Sequence record: MT782071.1 | Strand: one strand, 5' to 3' | DNA from: Escherichia phage JN02 | DNA length: 64,000 nucleotides | Part shown: positions 1 through 46,577 of the stretch, piece after piece | Layout of the letters: every line of letters starts with the position of its first letter | Position numbering within the stretch: position 1 is the stretch's first letter | The notes under the pieces: model-generated | Seen by the model: the letters and a program-made list of their open reading frames with translations, nothing else | Databases searched by the model: none | What the model was told of the DNA's origin: nothing | Position numbers and translations under genes: made by a program

Positions 1-1183
1 ATAAGGTTGAACCGGGTGAGAACGACCTTGTGGAATCACCTTGTTTTGCTCTTTAAGGCTATTAAAAATAATAGCATCCCATGTTTTAATTGGGCTAAAC
101 ACAGATTGAATCTGTATCTTAGCATAATAACCCATGTCCAAGCTCAAGTTAATGAACTGACGTTTACCATCAATTTGTAATACACGATACACGTCGATAA
201 TGTTATAAGAAATATATCGTTGGTGATTGCTTTCACGAAGCTTAGAAATAGGGCCGTCATATTTCAGTTTACCGACGTTCAATTCAAATTCTGAAATGTA
301 ATCCAGAGAATACGACGGTTGATTAGTAAAAGAGAATTTTTTGTAAAGGTCAATGTAATCAAGAACAGAGATACCGAACAATGTAATGATTTCACGAGAA
401 CCATACATGTTTTCGATAACTTTAACACGAGTTTTACGATGTGGTGATAAACGTTTCGCAGTAGATTCGCCAAAAATATTCTTGATTCGGTTATACACAT
501 ATGGAATATCAAATGACTCAACGTTCCATCCGGTTAAAATGACAGGAGTTTTCTGTTGCCAGAAGTTGAGATATTCCATCAACAATTCTTTTTCGTTATC
601 GAACGGCATATAAATGATTTTATCGATAATTTCGGATGGAACTTCATCACCACCTTGTTCTTGAAGCTTAGCCGCAATTTCGATAGACCATTCTTCCACA
701 TTACCGTATGGAGAATTCAAAAGGTCAAATACGTAGAACCTGTCGTCAATTGAGTCATAATGGGTGATAGCATCAATTGGATGTTTTGCTTGTGACGGCT
801 CAGGGAACCCATCCGGAGATGTTACTTCGATGTCGAAGTTAGCCACACGAATTTTTGTATGGTCGTATTTGATTTCATAGTTATAAGTGTCAGACAAATA
901 CGCCAATTTGAAATCGTCCATGCCAAGTGCTTCAAGTCCGATATCTTCCATGCGTTTAATCCATTGGGAGGCATCACGCATATTGGCGAACAACTTACGA
1001 GTACACGGCTTACCGTAGATATCGAAATATTTCGTAGCCTGACTTTCTGGACAATGAGCAAACAGTGATGGTTTATATTCTACTTCACGAGTACGTTCAC
1101 GGCCATTAGAATCGATGTAACGTTCAAAAATTGAATCACCAATCTGTTCAACCGTTAAGTAAAATTCTTTCATTTAATTTCCT
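1..1183 (-). CDS. 43: DNA polymerase gp43, N-terminal ~394 aa (partial, continues past window start)
   Basis: Manual minus-strand translation from ATG ~1183 reads MKEFYLTVEQIGDSIFERYIDSNGRERTREVEY...KTWDAIIFNSLK with no stop to the window edge; closely matches the N-terminus of T4 gp43 as I recall it. Absent from ORF track because it has no in-window stop. Confidence 0.85.
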
Positions 1184-1254
1184 TTAGACGAGTTATTGTC
1201 TTTTGTTTGTTGATGAACTTATTATACTCCAAATGGGACCGAAGTCCCATTGCT

Positions 1255-1623
1255 TTAATTACCAATTGTATATTTTGCTTTCAAAGTCCAGTCATCTTTC
1301 TGTTTAAAAGAGATAACACGGAAGTTATTAGTAAGGCCAAACAGATCTTCACGAGCAGAGTCTTCAATAACAATCAATCCCCAGTCTTCAAGCAACTGAG
1401 CAATCGAATCACGTCGCTGATAGTCTTCACCATCAATATCAACCTGACGTCCGTCCATACGCAGCATTTCTTTAAAGTGGACGATATAGTACTTACCTTG
1501 CTTTTGGAGGATATGACAAGACTGGTAAAGGACTTTATCCTTGTTATTAGCGATGCCCATACGGGTCAAAGTCTCTTTGACTTTCAGAAAATCTTCAGGG
1601 TTCTTCAATTTAATTTCAATCAT
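1255..1623 (-). CDS. regA: RegA translational repressor
   Basis: ORF track 1255..1632; from M4 reads MIEIKLKNPEDFLKVKETLTRMGIANNKDKVLYQSCHILQK..., near-identical to T4 RegA as recalled; start set to the MIEI methionine. Confidence 0.9.
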   Translation of the reverse strand: MIEIKLKNPEDFLKVKETLTRMGIANNKDKVLYQSCHILQKQGKYYIVHFKEMLRMDGRQVDIDGEDYQRRDSIAQLLEDWGLIVIEDSAREDLFGLTNNFRVISFKQKDDWTLKAKYTIGN

Positions 1624-27464: not shown

Positions 27465-27652
27465 TATTCTTCTACATGTTGTTTACGGCCTTTCTTATCA
27501 ATAAAGGTATATTCAACGAATGTTCCGATGTAGTCTTTATCTACATCATGTGGACTATTAATTGGACATTTGGTACGACAAATGCGTTCCCATTGACGAA
27601 TAATTACTGCCTTATTCTTTGGGTCATATGGATGTGGATAATGTATATTCAT
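27440..27652 (-). CDS. Hypothetical protein
   Basis: Track ORF 27440..27667; internal ATG (MNIHYPHPYD...) abuts the upstream gene stop. Confidence 0.5.
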   Translation of the reverse strand: MNIHYPHPYDPKNKAVIIRQWERICRTKCPINSPHDVDKDYIGTFVEYTFIDKKGRKQHVEEYCLKVTWL

Positions 27653-28146
27653 AATAATGGTTCCCAATCAACAATCACAATTTCTAGTTTAGTGGAATAC
27701 GTATCTAAAATCTCTTCGATGACATCCCAGTTTCCACCACCAATACCTGCACCAATTCTTGGCATATAAATTACAGGCTTTGTTATCTTATTCTTTCCGA
27801 ATTCATTTAATTCTATTATACAATTCATTAAAGCAGAGTACTCAAAATTAGGTCCCGGCTCAAACTGCGTATAAAGATTAAAGCAATAAGCTTTATGGGT
27901 CTTAAAATATTTTTCATAAACCGAATAAGTCCCGAGTTTAGACTCGTCTCCGAATTCGGTTTGAAGTTTATCAGCTTCCAGAATTTTTGGATAAGCCTTT
28001 GCTAATTGTCCTGCCACACCGGCGCCCATTGTATGAAAACAATTACACCCATGAGCGATATTATTACCTTTAGAAAACAGGGCGACAATATCGCCCTTGA
28101 TATAGTTTTTAATCACTTGCTGCAAGTCCTCTATTATAAGAGTCAA
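27649..28146 (-). CDS. Macro-domain (ADP-ribose binding/processing) protein
   Basis: 165 aa; GNNIAHGCNCFHTMGAGVAGQL and PRIGAGIGGGNW resemble the two Gly-rich ADP-ribose-binding loops of macro domains. Confidence 0.65.
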   Translation of the reverse strand: MTLIIEDLQQVIKNYIKGDIVALFSKGNNIAHGCNCFHTMGAGVAGQLAKAYPKILEADKLQTEFGDESKLGTYSVYEKYFKTHKAYCFNLYTQFEPGPNFEYSALMNCIIELNEFGKNKITKPVIYMPRIGAGIGGGNWDVIEEILDTYSTKLEIVIVDWEPLL

Positions 28147-28456
28147 CTAGACGGTCCACCATAGAATTGCATGCTGCCTTATCTTTAGGTTCCGCCACCG
28201 AGCATTCTAATATTTGCCATTTTTTATAGTATCTTTTAATTAAGGTAGACGCCTTGAACCTACTAGACGCCCCATCTTTTTCTCCGTCTTTATACGCATA
28301 TAACAATTTTTGTGAAAAATCTACTTTACACTCTTGACTTTGACCACAATAATCAGACGCCGTTCTGTTTGTATACTCCGTTATATCAGTGTATGTAGTA
28401 TTAGCAAGAGCGTTAAATGAAACCAAGCCAACTATTAAAGCCAACATTTTGGTCAT
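28109..28456 (-). CDS. Secreted Cys-containing protein (115 aa)
   Basis: Signal-peptide-like N-terminus MTKMLALIVGLVSFNALA; four Cys; occupies the vs position of T4 but identity not established. Confidence 0.5.
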   Translation of the reverse strand: MTKMLALIVGLVSFNALANTTYTDITEYTNRTASDYCGQSQECKVDFSQKLLYAYKDGEKDGASSRFKASTLIKRYYKKWQILECSVAEPKDKAACNSMVDRLVDSYNRGLAASD

Positions 28457-28995
28457 TCTTTTATTTCCAGTAGTTTATTTGATTTAAGGTAATTGGCCTT
28501 TTCTAGGACTTCAGAAGCATATTTACTTCCAGCACTTGTCTTCCATCCCGCATTATATGAGGATATAGCTTTTCTTATATCCCCATTATGTATATTTAAC
28601 CAATAAGAAAATTCGATATAAGCCCATCTAGCTGAATTAGACCGCTTAGATAGCATTTTCTTAATTTGGGCATCAGTCATATTATAACCAAGCTGGTTAA
28701 TTCGTGCCCTCATTGTTGGTAGATAATTTTGGAACATTCCATACGCATGGTGACCTTTCTTATCTTTAAGATTAATACCGGCAGATGATTCCTGCCATAG
28801 TATTGCGGCCATTATGTACCCAAGTCCTTTCTTATGCATATTTTCATGCGTTTTAAATTTTCCGTCCTTAGAAAACTGTTCCCCAAACTGATAAGCATAA
28901 TTCAAGTTATCGAGTTGGACATTACTAAAAGTATGCTCGGAGCTATGTGCTGATAATGAAAGAGCAAATAGACCAGCGAGTAGTGCTTTTCTCAT
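28453..28995 (-). CDS. Lytic transglycosylase-like (SLT-domain) protein with signal peptide
   Basis: 180 aa; signal-like MRKALLAGLFALSLSAHS; ILWQESSAG...GMFQ resembles the SLT catalytic E-S...G[LM][MF]Q motif. Confidence 0.6.
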   Translation of the reverse strand: MRKALLAGLFALSLSAHSSEHTFSNVQLDNLNYAYQFGEQFSKDGKFKTHENMHKKGLGYIMAAILWQESSAGINLKDKKGHHAYGMFQNYLPTMRARINQLGYNMTDAQIKKMLSKRSNSARWAYIEFSYWLNIHNGDIRKAISSYNAGWKTSAGSKYASEVLEKANYLKSNKLLEIKE

Positions 28996-29003
28996 GTTTA
29001 CCT

Positions 29004-29462
29004 CTAGATTTTAATCACTGCTTTAGAAGCTTTTCCTGGTAGTCGTTTACTGTTAATAATAGCCATTCTGCATTGAAGAGTCTTCATTTTGAATGCTGGA
29101 TTTTCGCGACAGACTGTGAGTCCTAACCAAAGATTTCCATCAGTTATTTCTAAACGGCCTGGGCGATATTCGACGCCTTCGACAAAATCTTCATCAACAT
29201 CTGGACGTGCCGGCATTGATAAAAATTCTGCAACTTCTTTAACATGATTTTTTACTTTACGAAATAATTCAAAAACGTAGTTCTCATCTATTTCTCTCTG
29301 GATGGCACGATCTAAGAGATGTTGAGAATACTTGATATGAAAGCCTGGTAGTCCAAGAGACTTTGCAGCATCTTTTATACCGGCATTTATTTTGCGGAAC
29401 TCCGTTTCAAAGATTCGACGGAGTTTATTACGGCGGATAAAAACGTCTGAATTGATAGTCAT
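29004..29462 (-). CDS. regB: Endoribonuclease RegB
   Basis: 152 aa; MTINSDVFIRRNKLRR...CRMAIINSKRLPGKASKAVIK, about 80 percent identical to T4 RegB as recalled. Confidence 0.9.
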   Translation of the reverse strand: MTINSDVFIRRNKLRRIFETEFRKINAGIKDAAKSLGLPGFHIKYSQHLLDRAIQREIDENYVFELFRKVKNHVKEVAEFLSMPARPDVDEDFVEGVEYRPGRLEITDGNLWLGLTVCRENPAFKMKTLQCRMAIINSKRLPGKASKAVIKI

Positions 29463-29518: not shown

Positions 29519-29818
29519 CTACTCTTTGAAAGGAATTAACTTTTTAACTGCTTTAGATACTTCGTCACGAACCTGGTGGAAGTTCTTGAGCTGTTCAAGG
29601 CGTTGTTCGTAATACGCAATCTCATCTTCTTCAAGACAATCGTCAGCGTCTTCTTTCAGATATGCCTTGTACTCATTAAAGAGGGCCCATAGGCGATTCT
29701 CAAAGTCATCAAGGCTTTGAATTTTCTTGTGCTTCGGAACAAGGCCAAAAGGATTGCTTTCAGTTATGCGTCGAGATGCTTCATAATGAGTTCCAAAGCC
29801 TGATAGGATTTGAGCCAT
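29519..29818 (-). CDS. Hypothetical protein (vs.3 position)
   Basis: Track ORF 29519..29860; internal ATG at 29818 overlaps the upstream stop. Confidence 0.5.
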
Positions 29819-30063
29819 TAGTATTTTTCCTCTGGTTGAAATACCGCACGACAAGCCCACATACTAGCTTCCTTTAGGCGTTCTTTAGCACAGTTCAATT
29901 GGGACAAAGCCATCAGAGCTTCAGGAGTATTTGCTGATAATGCTTCTTCTGCCAGGGCGTCTAGAATAAGTCCTAAACGAACTTCAGCATCTTTAATAGC
30001 GTTCACTTTACCGATTTTATCATCGGTATGCGGCTTGTAGCCTTTGATGTCTTCAATCGACAT
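29818..30063 (-). CDS. Putative Acb2-like (Vs.4-position) small helical protein
   Basis: Track ORF 29818..30231; internal ATG at 30063 gives 81 aa ([31 protein letters not shown]...). Assignment is by position relative to regB and the GrcA-like gene, where T4 carries vs.4; sequence not verified. Confidence 0.4.
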
Positions 30064-30277
30064 AAGGAATTTCCTCATCGGTGGCAAGGTCATATTCGAC
30101 CAATTGGATAGGCTCATTAATACCATATCCGCGTACAGTGATATCAGTTGACGGATATTTTCCAGTAATATCACCCGTTCTAAATGCTTCAATGAATGAT
30201 TGCTCGCCTGAGCAACTAAACCAGGCGGCAAAACATTTTAAAACATCTTCAGACCCTTCTATAATCAATTTAGCCAT
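30053..30277 (-). CDS. Hypothetical protein (vs.5 position)
   Basis: 74-aa track ORF. Confidence 0.55.
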   Translation of the reverse strand: MAKLIIEGSEDVLKCFAAWFSCSGEQSFIEAFRTGDITGKYPSTDITVRGYGINEPIQLVEYDLATDEEIPYVD

Positions 30278-30639
30278 TATAGACTCTCAGTAAAGGTACG
30301 AGCGATAACGTCGCGTTGCTGTTCCGGAGTCAGAGAGTTAAAGCGAACTGCATAACCGGATACACGGATGGTCAGCTGCGGATATTTTTCTGGATGCTTA
30401 ACTGCATCTTCCAGAGTTTCGCGACGCAGAACGTTAACGTTCAGGTGTTGACCGCCTTCAATTTTAACTTTAGGTTGATGTTCAATTTCAATTTCACGGG
30501 CATTCAAACCGTAGAAAATTTCTGGGTCTACAATAGCGTCTTCTTTAAAAGTCTTAGAGACAATAATCCGGGCTTGAGTACCGTCTTCAAAATAAATAGT
30601 GCCTTTATGTGCACCTTCAAGAATTTGATATACTTTCAT
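30277..30639 (-). CDS. Autonomous glycyl-radical cofactor (GrcA/YfiD-like; T4 Y06I-like)
   Basis: 120 aa; C-terminal [60 protein letters not shown] contains the RVSGY glycyl-radical motif and looks essentially identical to the E. coli GrcA C-terminus as I recall it. Confidence 0.85.
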
Positions 30640-30645
30640 ATAACC

Positions 30646-30954
30646 TCAATTAGAAAATAAATTTATCCAAGTTTTTTCTTTAATCAAAAATGGGTCGGAA
30701 TTAAACGCCATTAAACTTTGAGTGATTAATCCCTTAAATGGCCCATCAATAAATTCCATTTTGAAATGCGGAATACTAGTCATTAACCGTGTATTAGGAG
30801 CAGTACAAAGAACATGCTGCCCTGCGAACGGACCTTTAGTCAAACGATATCGTTTAGGTTTAAAATGGTAGATCTCGTAATTTTCTACAAGAGCCCTTTT
30901 ATTGCATACTGGGCTGTTATAACAATACTCAAAAACTTCAATAGTGGTCATCAT
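30646..30954 (-). CDS. Hypothetical protein
   Basis: Track ORF 30646..31002; internal ATG gives an ATGA overlap with the upstream stop. Confidence 0.5.
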   Translation of the reverse strand: MMTTIEVFEYCYNSPVCNKRALVENYEIYHFKPKRYRLTKGPFAGQHVLCTAPNTRLMTSIPHFKMEFIDGPFKGLITQSLMAFNSDPFLIKEKTWINLFSN

Positions 30955-31490
30955 TGCATTCCAATCACAAAAAATTGAGGACGAGCAATACCGCCGATGC
31001 AATATTTGCTTTTGCAGCAGTACTGTACTGATTTAATATGGACATTGTAAATCTTATCCATATCAGGAGCTTTAATAGGCTCGTCAATTATATACAGAAT
31101 ACGAGAAAGCGTTAATCCACGGAATTTAGAACCTTCATTGCCAATAAAACTACGGACAGAATCAGTAAATAAACGGAATCGAATATCGTCGCTAGAATAA
31201 CGTGAAAATTCTTTTTCAATGTTGCCAGCAGAAATTTTAGCATAAGCTGAAGTATTAGAAAGAACAATAACTGTTCCACCGTCATACAGCCAATTAGCAG
31301 CAAAGTTAGTCACAGCAATTGATTTACCTGATTGTCTGCCACCGTCTAAACGAAGTGTACAGTACTGCTTGAGTACGTCTTCAAATGGTGGGACATAACC
31401 GTTCTTACAAATTTCTTCTACTCTAGCATCAGAATGGTGTGTAAAAGCATTCATCAGGGATAGATAAGGTCCGGTTAAAAATGTTCTCAT
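30951..31490 (-). CDS. P-loop NTPase-like protein (179 aa)
   Basis: Track ORF 30951..31526; ATG at 31490; Walker A-like LDGGRQSGKS. Confidence 0.55.
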   Translation of the reverse strand: MRTFLTGPYLSLMNAFTHHSDARVEEICKNGYVPPFEDVLKQYCTLRLDGGRQSGKSIAVTNFAANWLYDGGTVIVLSNTSAYAKISAGNIEKEFSRYSSDDIRFRLFTDSVRSFIGNEGSKFRGLTLSRILYIIDEPIKAPDMDKIYNVHIKSVQYCCKSKYCIGGIARPQFFVIGMQ

Positions 31491-31662: not shown

Positions 31663-31992
31663 TTATACTCTAGGCTTTTGAGCTTGTTTGGTATTGGATT
31701 CCCATGCGGCTTTGGTAATTTTGTTAGCGGCATAACCAAAGGCATTAGATAGAACACCTTTAGAGTTGAATACATCCAATCCAATAAGTACACCGGCTGT
31801 GTTAAATTTAGGAGCAAAGTACGCATTAGTTTTAGAAAGAGCTTTTTTCAATTCAGGGTCTTGAACCAAGCCATCAAAAATGCCTTTACTATTTACTTTA
31901 TATGTTACTTTGGGATTTTTACCTTCTTCGATAGCAGCTTTCTGTTCCGCAGATAATGTAACTTCAGTGATAAACTCTTGATATGTTTTCAT
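31663..31992 (-). CDS. Internal protein (capsid-targeted), 109 aa
   Basis: N-terminus MKTYQEFITE matches the T4 internal-protein capsid-targeting sequence (MKTYQEFIAE). Confidence 0.7.
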   Translation of the reverse strand: MKTYQEFITEVTLSAEQKAAIEEGKNPKVTYKVNSKGIFDGLVQDPELKKALSKTNAYFAPKFNTAGVLIGLDVFNSKGVLSNAFGYAANKITKAAWESNTKQAQKPRV

Positions 31993-32017: not shown

Positions 32018-32332
32018 TTATTCTTTAGGGAAGTTTTTAGAGTATGCATCATAAAGTTTATTACCAATACGGCGGAAGACTTTAGCTGCAAAACGGTTTT
32101 CAGGGTTTTTAATCATGATTTGCATCATGTAAGTTCCTGCATCCGAAAGAGCTTCTTCATAGTACCCGTTAATTTCTTTAAGAGTCCTACGTTTACCACC
32201 AGGACCATCAACAGTAATTTTCCATTTACCTGTAGAAGTGCGGCTCGGTGGCTCAACTTGTTCAATCCAAATATAACCACCTTCAACGCGTTGGTTGGCG
32301 GATTCTGCAATAAATTCTTTATACGTTTTCAT
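32018..32332 (-). CDS. Internal protein (capsid-targeted), 104 aa
   Basis: N-terminus MKTYKEFIAE; own early promoter upstream. Confidence 0.7.
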   Translation of the reverse strand: MKTYKEFIAESANQRVEGGYIWIEQVEPPSRTSTGKWKITVDGPGGKRRTLKEINGYYEEALSDAGTYMMQIMIKNPENRFAAKVFRRIGNKLYDAYSKNFPKE

Positions 32333-32395: not shown

Positions 32396-32656
32396 TTAAG
32401 CTTTACCGCCAGAAATAATTCCGAAGTTGTTAAAATCGTATCCAATATCGTCAACATCTACTTTAGGGCTTGCTACAACATAAGCAATTTCACTACGTTT
32501 TGCATAGGTGTTGATTTCTTTACCATCGCCACCTAAGAAAAAATACCCATTACGTTTTAATGAGCCAAAGTCTTCCGCATCACCAATGAAAGCTTTAACT
32601 TTAAATTTAGGACCTTTGGCATCTGCTTCAGCGATAAATTCTTGATACATTTTCAT
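32396..32656 (-). CDS. Internal protein (capsid-targeted), 86 aa
   Basis: N-terminus MKMYQEFIAE. Confidence 0.7.
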   Translation of the reverse strand: MKMYQEFIAEADAKGPKFKVKAFIGDAEDFGSLKRNGYFFLGGDGKEINTYAKRSEIAYVVASPKVDVDDIGYDFNNFGIISGGKA

Positions 32657-33134: not shown

Positions 33135-33416
33135 CTATTTTTCTGAAGCTCCTGAAATATATTTTTCAAGACGTTGTTTCATCAGCGAGCCGTTCTTAGC
33201 GATTTCTTCCGGTTTATCGCACATACGTAACAAGGCTTCAAGCTTAGCGATATCGCTGGTACGTTCAAATTTGCGAGTATCTATCTTACTAGCAAGTTCA
33301 GAAATACGTGCTAATAGACTTTCGGCTTCAACCAAAGCTGCACCTAGCTTAGTTGCAAATGTGTCAGTAGCTTCGTTAAGAATAGATTCTGATAAAAATT
33401 CACTATATGTTTTCAT
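33135..33416 (-). CDS. Internal protein (capsid-targeted), 93 aa
   Basis: Track ORF 33135..33431; from M6 reads [11 protein letters not shown]...; abuts the stop of e. Confidence 0.65.
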
Positions 33417-44787: not shown

Positions 44788-45075
44788 TTACAGAAGAGTT
44801 TTTGCAATAATTTTAAGCTGAGCTACAGAAATATGCTTAGCTTTAAACAGTGCAGTCTCTTCAGCAGGAGAGATAACAATAGTAGCGCCATCTTTCTTAG
44901 CAGACCATCCATCCCCTAAGTAAACAGTACCTTTTACTTCTTCGCCGTCAACCAGACTAATCATTGGTTTACCCTCACGTCCTTTATTTGCTTTAATAAC
45001 TTCGGAAGTAAGGGTTGCTTCGGTCAGAGTAGAAACGTTAGCATCAGGTGATATAAATTCTTTATAGGTTTTCAT
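44788..45075 (-). CDS. Internal protein (ipI position), 95 aa
   Basis: N-terminus MKTYKEFISPD...STLTEATLTSE (CTS-like); lies next to 57B as ipI does in T4. Confidence 0.6.
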   Translation of the reverse strand: MKTYKEFISPDANVSTLTEATLTSEVIKANKGREGKPMISLVDGEEVKGTVYLGDGWSAKKDGATIVISPAEETALFKAKHISVAQLKIIAKTLL

Positions 45076-45152: not shown

Positions 45153-45838
<686 letters not shown>

Positions 45839-45842
45839 TTTA

Positions 45843-46577
45843 TTACCTTAAGGTTGTTTCAATTTTAGAATAAAGCTCTTCTAAAGAGCCGTCGTTTGTA
45901 ATAACTAAATCGCCTTCTTCAATAGGCAACCCAGCTTCTGTAATATGTTTATCGGTGGATTCCGTACCAGAGCGAACCACATGAATAACTGTAGCACCCA
46001 TCGCTCTAGCGGTTTCCATTTCATGGACTTGGCGTGTATCGGTTACAACATAGTAATCGAAATCACTTCCAATATAATCCATATAATTTAATGCAAAAAG
46101 TTTAACCCAATACATACGGTCAAATAAATTAACGACAACATCCGTACCGAGGGCTTGCATAAGACGGCGGATTGACCATGTGTCGTTGATATTATTTATA
46201 GCTTCACGCAGGGCTTCATATGGTTTAATATCTAGATATGAATACCCACCTTCTAATGATGATAATACTTTAACATTATTAATTGGTAAATATTGGCTTT
46301 GTAAATAAATTAGCGCTTCTTCCATTAATTCAATAACATCCAACTTATTGATATTTAATGGTGTTTCACGGTCGTATCCAACACCTTCAAAGTATTCATA
46401 TTTCAACTCAGTGAATACATCAGGGTTTTCGGCATGTCTACGTCCCCAGGCTATTGCTAGAGCGTCTTTAATCGGATATGCCAATTGGTATTTTACGGAT
46501 TTAAAGTTTGAATTGATGTAATCAGCAGTGGTGTCTTTACCACTACGTTTGATGCCGCTTAAAAAGATTAGCTCCAT
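45843..46577 (-). CDS. 1: Deoxynucleoside monophosphate kinase gp1
   Basis: 244 aa; MELIFLSGIKRSGKDTTADYI P-loop N-terminus as in T4 gp1. Confidence 0.92.
   Translation of the reverse strand: MELIFLSGIKRSGKDTTADYINSNFKSVKYQLAYPIKDALAIAWGRRHAENPDVFTELKYEYFEGVGYDRETPLNINKLDVIELMEEALIYLQSQYLPINNVKVLSSLEGGYSYLDIKPYEALREAINNINDTWSIRRLMQALGTDVVVNLFDRMYWVKLFALNYMDYIGSDFDYYVVTDTRQVHEMETARAMGATVIHVVRSGTESTDKHITEAGLPIEEGDLVITNDGSLEELYSKIETTLR

Follow-up and report, generated by a model that had tools for sequence, protein, structure and literature searches.

The gene at 29818..30063 of Escherichia phage JN02 raises two questions, namely whether it encodes the anti-CBASS sponge Acb2, and, if so, which signals its product would bind. 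The window, i.e., the whole stretch of 64,000 nucleotides analysed here (sequence record MT782071.1, one strand), had previously been read from its letters and open reading frames, and this sequence-only reading had proposed an 81-aa helical protein at these coordinates as a candidate Acb2, by virtue of its location between regB and a GrcA-like gene, exactly where T4 has vs.4. According to our analysis, 29818..30063 is the vs.4 gene of a T4-type phage of the genus Mosigvirus (HX01-like), and its product is orthologous to T4 Vs.4/Acb2. The interpretation as a whole, in which this Mosigvirus ortholog of T4 Vs.4 (Acb2) would be a hairpin protein assembling into a hexameric sponge for cyclic dinucleotides and acting against CBASS, has in our estimation a probability of about 0.88. 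Within it, we infer by analogy the formation of the hexamer, ligand binding and ligand range, the timing of expression and the anti-CBASS activity.

Start site and neighbourhood of vs.4

On the minus strand, the vs.4 ORF reads from an ATG (30063..30061) to a TAA (29820..29818), i.e., 81 codons plus the stop (29818..30063, from ORF and translation), and its product has a computed mass of ~9.0 kDa and a pI of 5.1. The coordinates and the length given in the sequence-only reading were correct, as was the description of the protein as helical, since two helices (residues 14-44 and 47-74) were predicted by AlphaFold2 (see below). The ribosome-binding region (30064..30080, minus strand; GAGGAAATTCCTT before the ATG) is embedded in the 3'-terminal part of the vs.5 homolog, and a Shine-Dalgarno-like GAGGA can be read directly 8 nt 5' of the ATG. 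At face value, the start might be questioned, given that a mechanical ORF list carries the frame on to a TTG at 30231, so that the true product could be a 137-aa protein (29818..30231) or the ORF could have arisen by chance. Yet, such an extension would run through the vs.5 homolog, which is encoded in a different frame and matches PHROG 1986 (E=2e-38), whereas the homologs of the shorter product begin with M(S/A)IEDIKGY in 120 of the 120 matches listed; the position of the GAGGA argues for the ATG at 30063 and against the TTG, and the public annotations of HX01 and JQD51 have the identical start. The 137-aa ORF was rejected on these grounds (vs.5 overlap, homolog starts and Shine-Dalgarno position). 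As for a chance ORF, it is excluded because of the homology to T4 Vs.4 (E=9e-30) and because codon differences are biased towards synonymous ones, with 15 synonymous against three non-synonymous differences from T4 in the N-terminal 35 codons, which are conserved. Altogether, we consider the probability of a chance ORF or of a wrong start to be negligible. The same count (15 vs. three) also suggests that the ends of the gene are under purifying selection.

Over the 1.7 kb around vs.4, identity to the Mosigvirus phages HX01, NHEP11 and pEK20 reaches 98-99%; Mosigvirus phages are T4-like Straboviridae with E. coli as host. The gene is flanked by homologs of vs.3 (29519..29818; PHROG 2037) and vs.5 (30053..30277), both on the minus strand. 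Beyond the former is regB (29004..29462; PF10715, E=9e-69), and beyond the latter the GrcA-like vs.6 (30277..30639; PF01228, E=2e-18). Hence, vs.4 does lie between regB and the GrcA-like gene, as had been claimed, while adjoining neither, since the vs.3 and vs.5 homologs intervene. The order regB-vs.3-vs.4-vs.5-vs.6(GrcA) is that of both T4 (NC_000866) and HX01, with vs.4 as the matching slot of T4, and the gene sits where a T4-type ortholog is expected. It overlaps both neighbours, by 11 nt at its start, where the vs.5-like gene upstream of it ends, and by 1 nt at its stop, where the TAA runs into the ATG of the vs.3-like gene that follows downstream (TAATG). A promoter/terminator scan, whose counts were near shuffled expectation, returned no minus-strand promoter-like site in 30063-31022. 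Together with the start/stop overlaps, this weakly suggests that vs.4 probably shares a transcript with vs.6, vs.5, vs.3 and regB and is translationally coupled to them.

Several features of this neighbourhood deserve a brief comment of their own. The vs.3 and vs.5 homologs (29519..29818 and 30053..30277) are without a Pfam match and belong to PHROGs of unknown function (2037 and 1986, respectively), and it may merit attention that they are so closely linked to an anti-defence gene. Further along, a macro-domain protein occupies the Tk.4 position (27649..28146, minus strand; PF01661, E=2e-6), and the vs.1 homolog (28453..28995, minus strand) begins with a stretch resembling a signal peptide and matches an SLT transglycosylase below threshold (18.8 bits vs. 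a cut-off of 21.3). Three public labels in related records are probable annotation slips: the vs.3 homolog of HX01 (RefSeq NC_018855, 3020..3319) is named "pyrimidine dimer DNA glycosylase"; the vs.5 homolog of JQD51 (1076..1300) is labelled "glycyl radical protein" while the adjoining true GrcA-like gene is "hypothetical"; finally, a Vs.4 homolog (P0039) is called "RegB-like RNA endonuclease" in another record.

Family, predicted fold and putative nucleotide pocket

When the product was searched with phmmer against all PDB chains, a single match was recovered, T4 Vs.4 (7UQ2, E=9e-30), and 61 of the 80 residues aligned globally with T4 Vs.4 are identical. The Pfam model PF24729 (Acb2/Tad1 hairpin) is matched (63.3 bits for a cut-off of 27, E=2.3e-17), and so is PHROG 717 (E=3.6e-25), which contains the Vs.4 homologs according to Jenson et al. 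(PMC10097602). Among 5.8 billion protein clusters, 151 matches were found, with PF24729 present in all 120 listed. A profile computed from these listed homologs retrieved 7UQ2 (E=3.8e-41) and, more distantly, the Acb2 of Pseudomonas phage PaMx33 (8H2J, 8IXZ; E=1e-4), whose Y11 and K26 align with the Tyr and Lys of the family. Profile matches to a trypanosome haptoglobin-haemoglobin receptor and to a Rap phosphatase were weak and were set aside as a generic resemblance between helical hairpins.

The AlphaFold2 monomer model, built on an alignment of 121 sequences, is a two-helix hairpin (14-44 and 47-74) with a mean pLDDT of 85.4, in agreement with the small size (~80-95 aa) and the hairpin of two long antiparallel helices that characterize Acb2/Vs.4. 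Its termini are of low confidence (pLDDT 53-57), as expected if they become ordered only in the liganded hexamer, and the pocket itself is thereby left outside the modelled part. With Foldseek, the 7UQ2 chains rank first to third in the PDB (TM 0.75) and those of PaMx33 Acb2 (8H2X/8H2J) fourth to sixth (TM 0.65, probability 0.99-1.00). The remaining fold matches (CnrX, a small terminase and designed helical bundles) have E-values of 0.2 or worse and were also attributed to generic hairpin resemblance. Sequence comparison and structure prediction were the two checks suggested along with the positional assignment, and the absence of detectable similarity to Acb2 was what was to count against it: the similarity turns out to be clear, the predicted hairpin resembles 7UQ2 and then PaMx33 Acb2 ahead of other PDB chains, and the assignment is now supported by sequence, fold and synteny.

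In T4 Vs.4, cGAMP stacks on Y8 and F82 and is held through hydrogen bonds or salt bridges by Y8, H11, K23 and R79, while S74N perturbs binding and T12 caps a helix; the hexamer is maintained by L29, A66, A73, A77 and, more mildly, F33, of which the replacement by alanine half-destabilises the assembly (PMC10097602). Similarly, the dinucleotide pocket of PaMx33 Acb2 features a stacking Y11 and a salt-bridging K26 (PMC10312549). In the vs.4 product, the N-terminal half of the pocket (codons 9-24; 29992..30039, minus strand) has Y9, H12 and K24 for T4 Y8, H11 and K23, as well as T13 for T12, whereas codons 59-75 (29839..29889, minus strand), mapped residue by residue to T4, supply the C-terminal half and the hexamer interface, with A59, A66 and A70 corresponding to A66, A73 and A77, and S67, R72 and F75 to S74, R79 and F82. 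Thus, the reported cGAMP-contact residues of T4 are all kept (Y9, H12, K24, S67, R72, F75), as expected for a pocket of this type, and the interface likewise retains four of its five residues (L30, A59, A66, A70), the exception being F33, replaced by L34. This change is conservative, and Leu also occurs at the F33 position in the natural homologs P0002 and P0011. Across the 121 sequences listed, Y9, H12, K24, A59, S67, R72 and F75 are invariant, and conservation reaches 90% or more at T13, L30, A66 and A70. On the strength of these conserved residues, the vs.4 product is predicted to form a hexamer and to bind nucleotides.

The mechanism that we propose follows that of T4 Vs.4. Six hairpins would interlock into a hexamer, in which each of the three dimer interfaces would provide a pocket made of Y9, H12 and K24 from one protomer and of S67, R72 and F75 from its partner. 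Each pocket would take up one cyclic dinucleotide without cleaving it, i.e., 3',3'-cGAMP and its relatives produced by CBASS CD-NTases. Produced during infection, the sponge would hold the concentration of free signal too low for CBASS effectors to be activated, and abortive infection would be prevented. For T4 Acb2, the reported Kd is 30-85 nM for 3',3'-cGAMP and ~62 nM for 2',3'-c-di-AMP (PMC12657218).

The hairpin tip and the predicted range of ligands

Between the two conserved ends, the hairpin tip (codons 41-58; 29890..29943, minus strand), delimited by column entropy and by DNA alignment with HX01, JQD51 and T4, is seven residues shorter than that of T4 and of unrelated sequence. Over the 121 sequences listed, its columns have an entropy of 2-3.4 bits and contain indels, as against 0-1 bit for both ends. 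JQD51 has ~99% identical flanks but a different, 88-aa vs.4 allele with an unrelated tip (JQD51 820..1086), and 75 of the 96 differing alignment columns between the window and JQD51 over 1.7 kb are located in 29840-30019, inside vs.4 and for the most part at the hairpin tip, which makes the tip an allele-replacement hotspot. Across T4-like phages, the tip is a hypervariable segment swapped between alleles. That the between-strain divergence of this 1.7-kb region sits nearly all in the vs.4 hairpin tip is a modestly new by-product of our analysis. One might go further and regard the tip as a diversifying and recombining functional cassette, which would either tune a second pocket on the three-fold axis to host signals or allow escape from a host factor recognising the sponge, in which case the ligand range or the host-recognition profile of the 81-aa allele would differ from that of T4 Acb2; we mention this as a speculation that is rather unlikely to hold.

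Membership in the family does not by itself fix the ligand, because some Acb2-family members bind 3'cADPR rather than CBASS signals (PMC12393519). The tip also holds the equivalents of trinucleotide-pocket residues of PaMx33 (S54 and N57, with E61 just outside). It is thus conceivable that the product is an Acb2-family sponge with shifted or widened ligands, of which the short tip would remodel the three-fold pocket for cyclic trinucleotides, for 3'cADPR (a Thoeris signal) or for another nucleotide, besides or in place of dinucleotides. The hypervariability of the tip in the family and its exchange between otherwise 99%-identical phages would fit such a role, as would the fact that, among the residues said to block the trinucleotide pocket of T4 (Y37, A57, L60, D61, T64; PMC10312549), four are changed here (to A38, L50, S54 and N57), and Acb2 homologs with non-CBASS ligands are indeed known (PMC12393519). 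However, PaMx33 Acb2, which together with that of JBD67 represents the trinucleotide-binding subtype, binds cyclic trinucleotides in a second pocket through R67 and T74 of helix 2 (PMC10312549), both needed for cA3, and residue mapping places S54 and E61 at these positions in the vs.4 product, neither PaMx33 residue being present. Moreover, T4 Acb2, which has D61 and T68 there and holds one of the two cA3 residues, does not bind cA3, and neither does its D61R mutant (PMC10312549). As for 3'cADPR, its binding by Acb2_43 relies on extra terminal beta-strands and other contacts (PMC12393519), while vs.4 keeps the full set of T4 cGAMP contacts. A change of ligands brought about by the variant tip is therefore unsupported, and we judge it decidedly improbable.

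The short tip could alternatively be a sign of decay, the deletion of seven residues and the F33 to L change having impaired the hexamer in a weakened allele, of which the remnant would be tolerated because Acb1, encoded in the same genome, covers CBASS. With 81 aa, the product does belong to the shortest length class, found in two of the 120 cluster representatives listed, nearly all others having 87-94 aa, and F33A does destabilise the T4 hexamer (PMC10097602). Nevertheless, the reading frame is unbroken and its translation coupled to that of its neighbours, and the 81-aa form has been kept in a 21-member cluster found in numerous full-length phage genomes, in ~38 GenBank phage records (identity of at least 80%) and in a second 81-aa lineage that is 74% identical (P0004). 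This allele has lost none of the contact residues and only one of the five interface residues, and the deletion shortens the tip by some two helical turns, at a place where the modelled hairpin continues without interruption (pLDDT above 95). A decaying allele is consequently unlikely, and in our view very much so.

We therefore favour a putative sponge of the T4 type. Since the equivalents of R67 and T74 are missing, the vs.4 product is predicted to bind dinucleotides only, as T4 Acb2; the binding of cyclic trinucleotides was held unlikely for the same reason, and the second pocket known from PaMx33 would probably be non-functional, as in T4.

Companion genes, implications and known systems

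JN02 also encodes a homolog of T4 gene 57B, i.e., Acb1 (45153..45608, minus strand; PF23474, E=6.7e-58; PDB 7T26, E=3e-58), a cyclic-oligonucleotide phosphodiesterase that degrades CBASS signals. As in T4, this gene is followed by those of gp57A (45608..45838) and of the dNMP kinase gp1 (45843..46577). To judge from these homologies, JN02 carries both T4-type anti-CBASS genes, the Acb1 nuclease and the Acb2 sponge, as T4 itself does, and the two together predict a broad evasion of cGAMP-type CBASS.

Two other features of the window were noted in passing. Five small proteins, all encoded on the minus strand (31663..31992, 32018..32332, 32396..32656, 33135..33416 and 44788..45075), have in common an N-terminal leader, MKTY(Q/K/S)EF(I/L), and are otherwise dissimilar; this leader resembles the sequence by which T4 internal proteins are targeted to the capsid. 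For the last of the five proteins (44788..45075), a match to PF11634 was obtained (IPI nuclease inhibitor, E=1.4e-50). In addition, Arg-TCT and Met-CAT (43125..43281, minus strand) were the only two tRNA genes that ARAGORN predicted in the window, at the position of a cluster of eight in T4.

Regarding the novelty of these results, the Acb2 family was described in 2023, together with its structure and mechanism, and a Pfam model exists, so that the identity of vs.4 is already known; UniRef applies the name "Acb2/Tad1 hairpin domain-containing protein" to Mosigvirus members of the 90%-identity cluster to which the JN02 product belongs. GenBank records of vs.4 mostly say "hypothetical protein", and the main value of the identification lies in correct annotation, with little beyond. 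One practical consequence may nonetheless be drawn from the Panoptes decoy-nucleotide systems, which are triggered by Acb2 (PMC12657218). By analogy, carrying Acb2 is predicted to make the phage detectable by, or sensitive to, Panoptes-type decoy systems, a sensitivity that would be relevant to predicting the host range of therapeutic Mosigvirus phages.

Among known systems, Tad1 and Acb2_43 have in common with the vs.4 product the helical-hairpin domain (PF24729) and, as predicted here, the sponge action. Tad1 consists of the hairpin plus an additional domain. In Acb2_43, beta-strands are added at both the N- and the C-terminus and the contacts are made by other residues (PMC12393519). The AlphaFold2 model of the vs.4 product is hairpin-only, with no strand of three residues or more, unlike the Tad1/Acb2_43 type, in which the additional domain or the terminal strands form a gcADPR/3'cADPR pocket, and a reading as Tad1 or as a Thoeris sponge was rejected, considering that there is neither an extra domain nor beta-strands and that the full T4 cGAMP-contact set is present. 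Closer to the product is PaMx33 Acb2 (8H2J, 8H2X, 8IXZ; Huiting et al. 2023; PMC10312549), which belongs to the same Pfam family, adopts the same fold and has Y11 and K26 for Y9 and K24, but is only ~17-18% identical and features the R67 and T74 that are absent here. At the other extreme, the 81-aa orthologs of Mosigvirus (HX01 YP_010246919, PhAPEC2 YP_009056698; cluster P0001) are 98-99% identical, with the same length and position and one or two differing residues; the exact JN02 sequence (L34 together with M51) is absent from a collection of 15 billion proteins. Finally, T4 Vs.4/Acb2 (NP_049728, 7UQ2; Jenson et al. 2023, PMC10097602) differs by its length (88 vs. 81 aa), by the lack of the extra S2 found at the N-terminus of the JN02 protein, and by F33, D61 and T68 in place of L34, S54 and E61, but it shares with that protein the same genomic slot, the same hairpin and the same cGAMP contacts.
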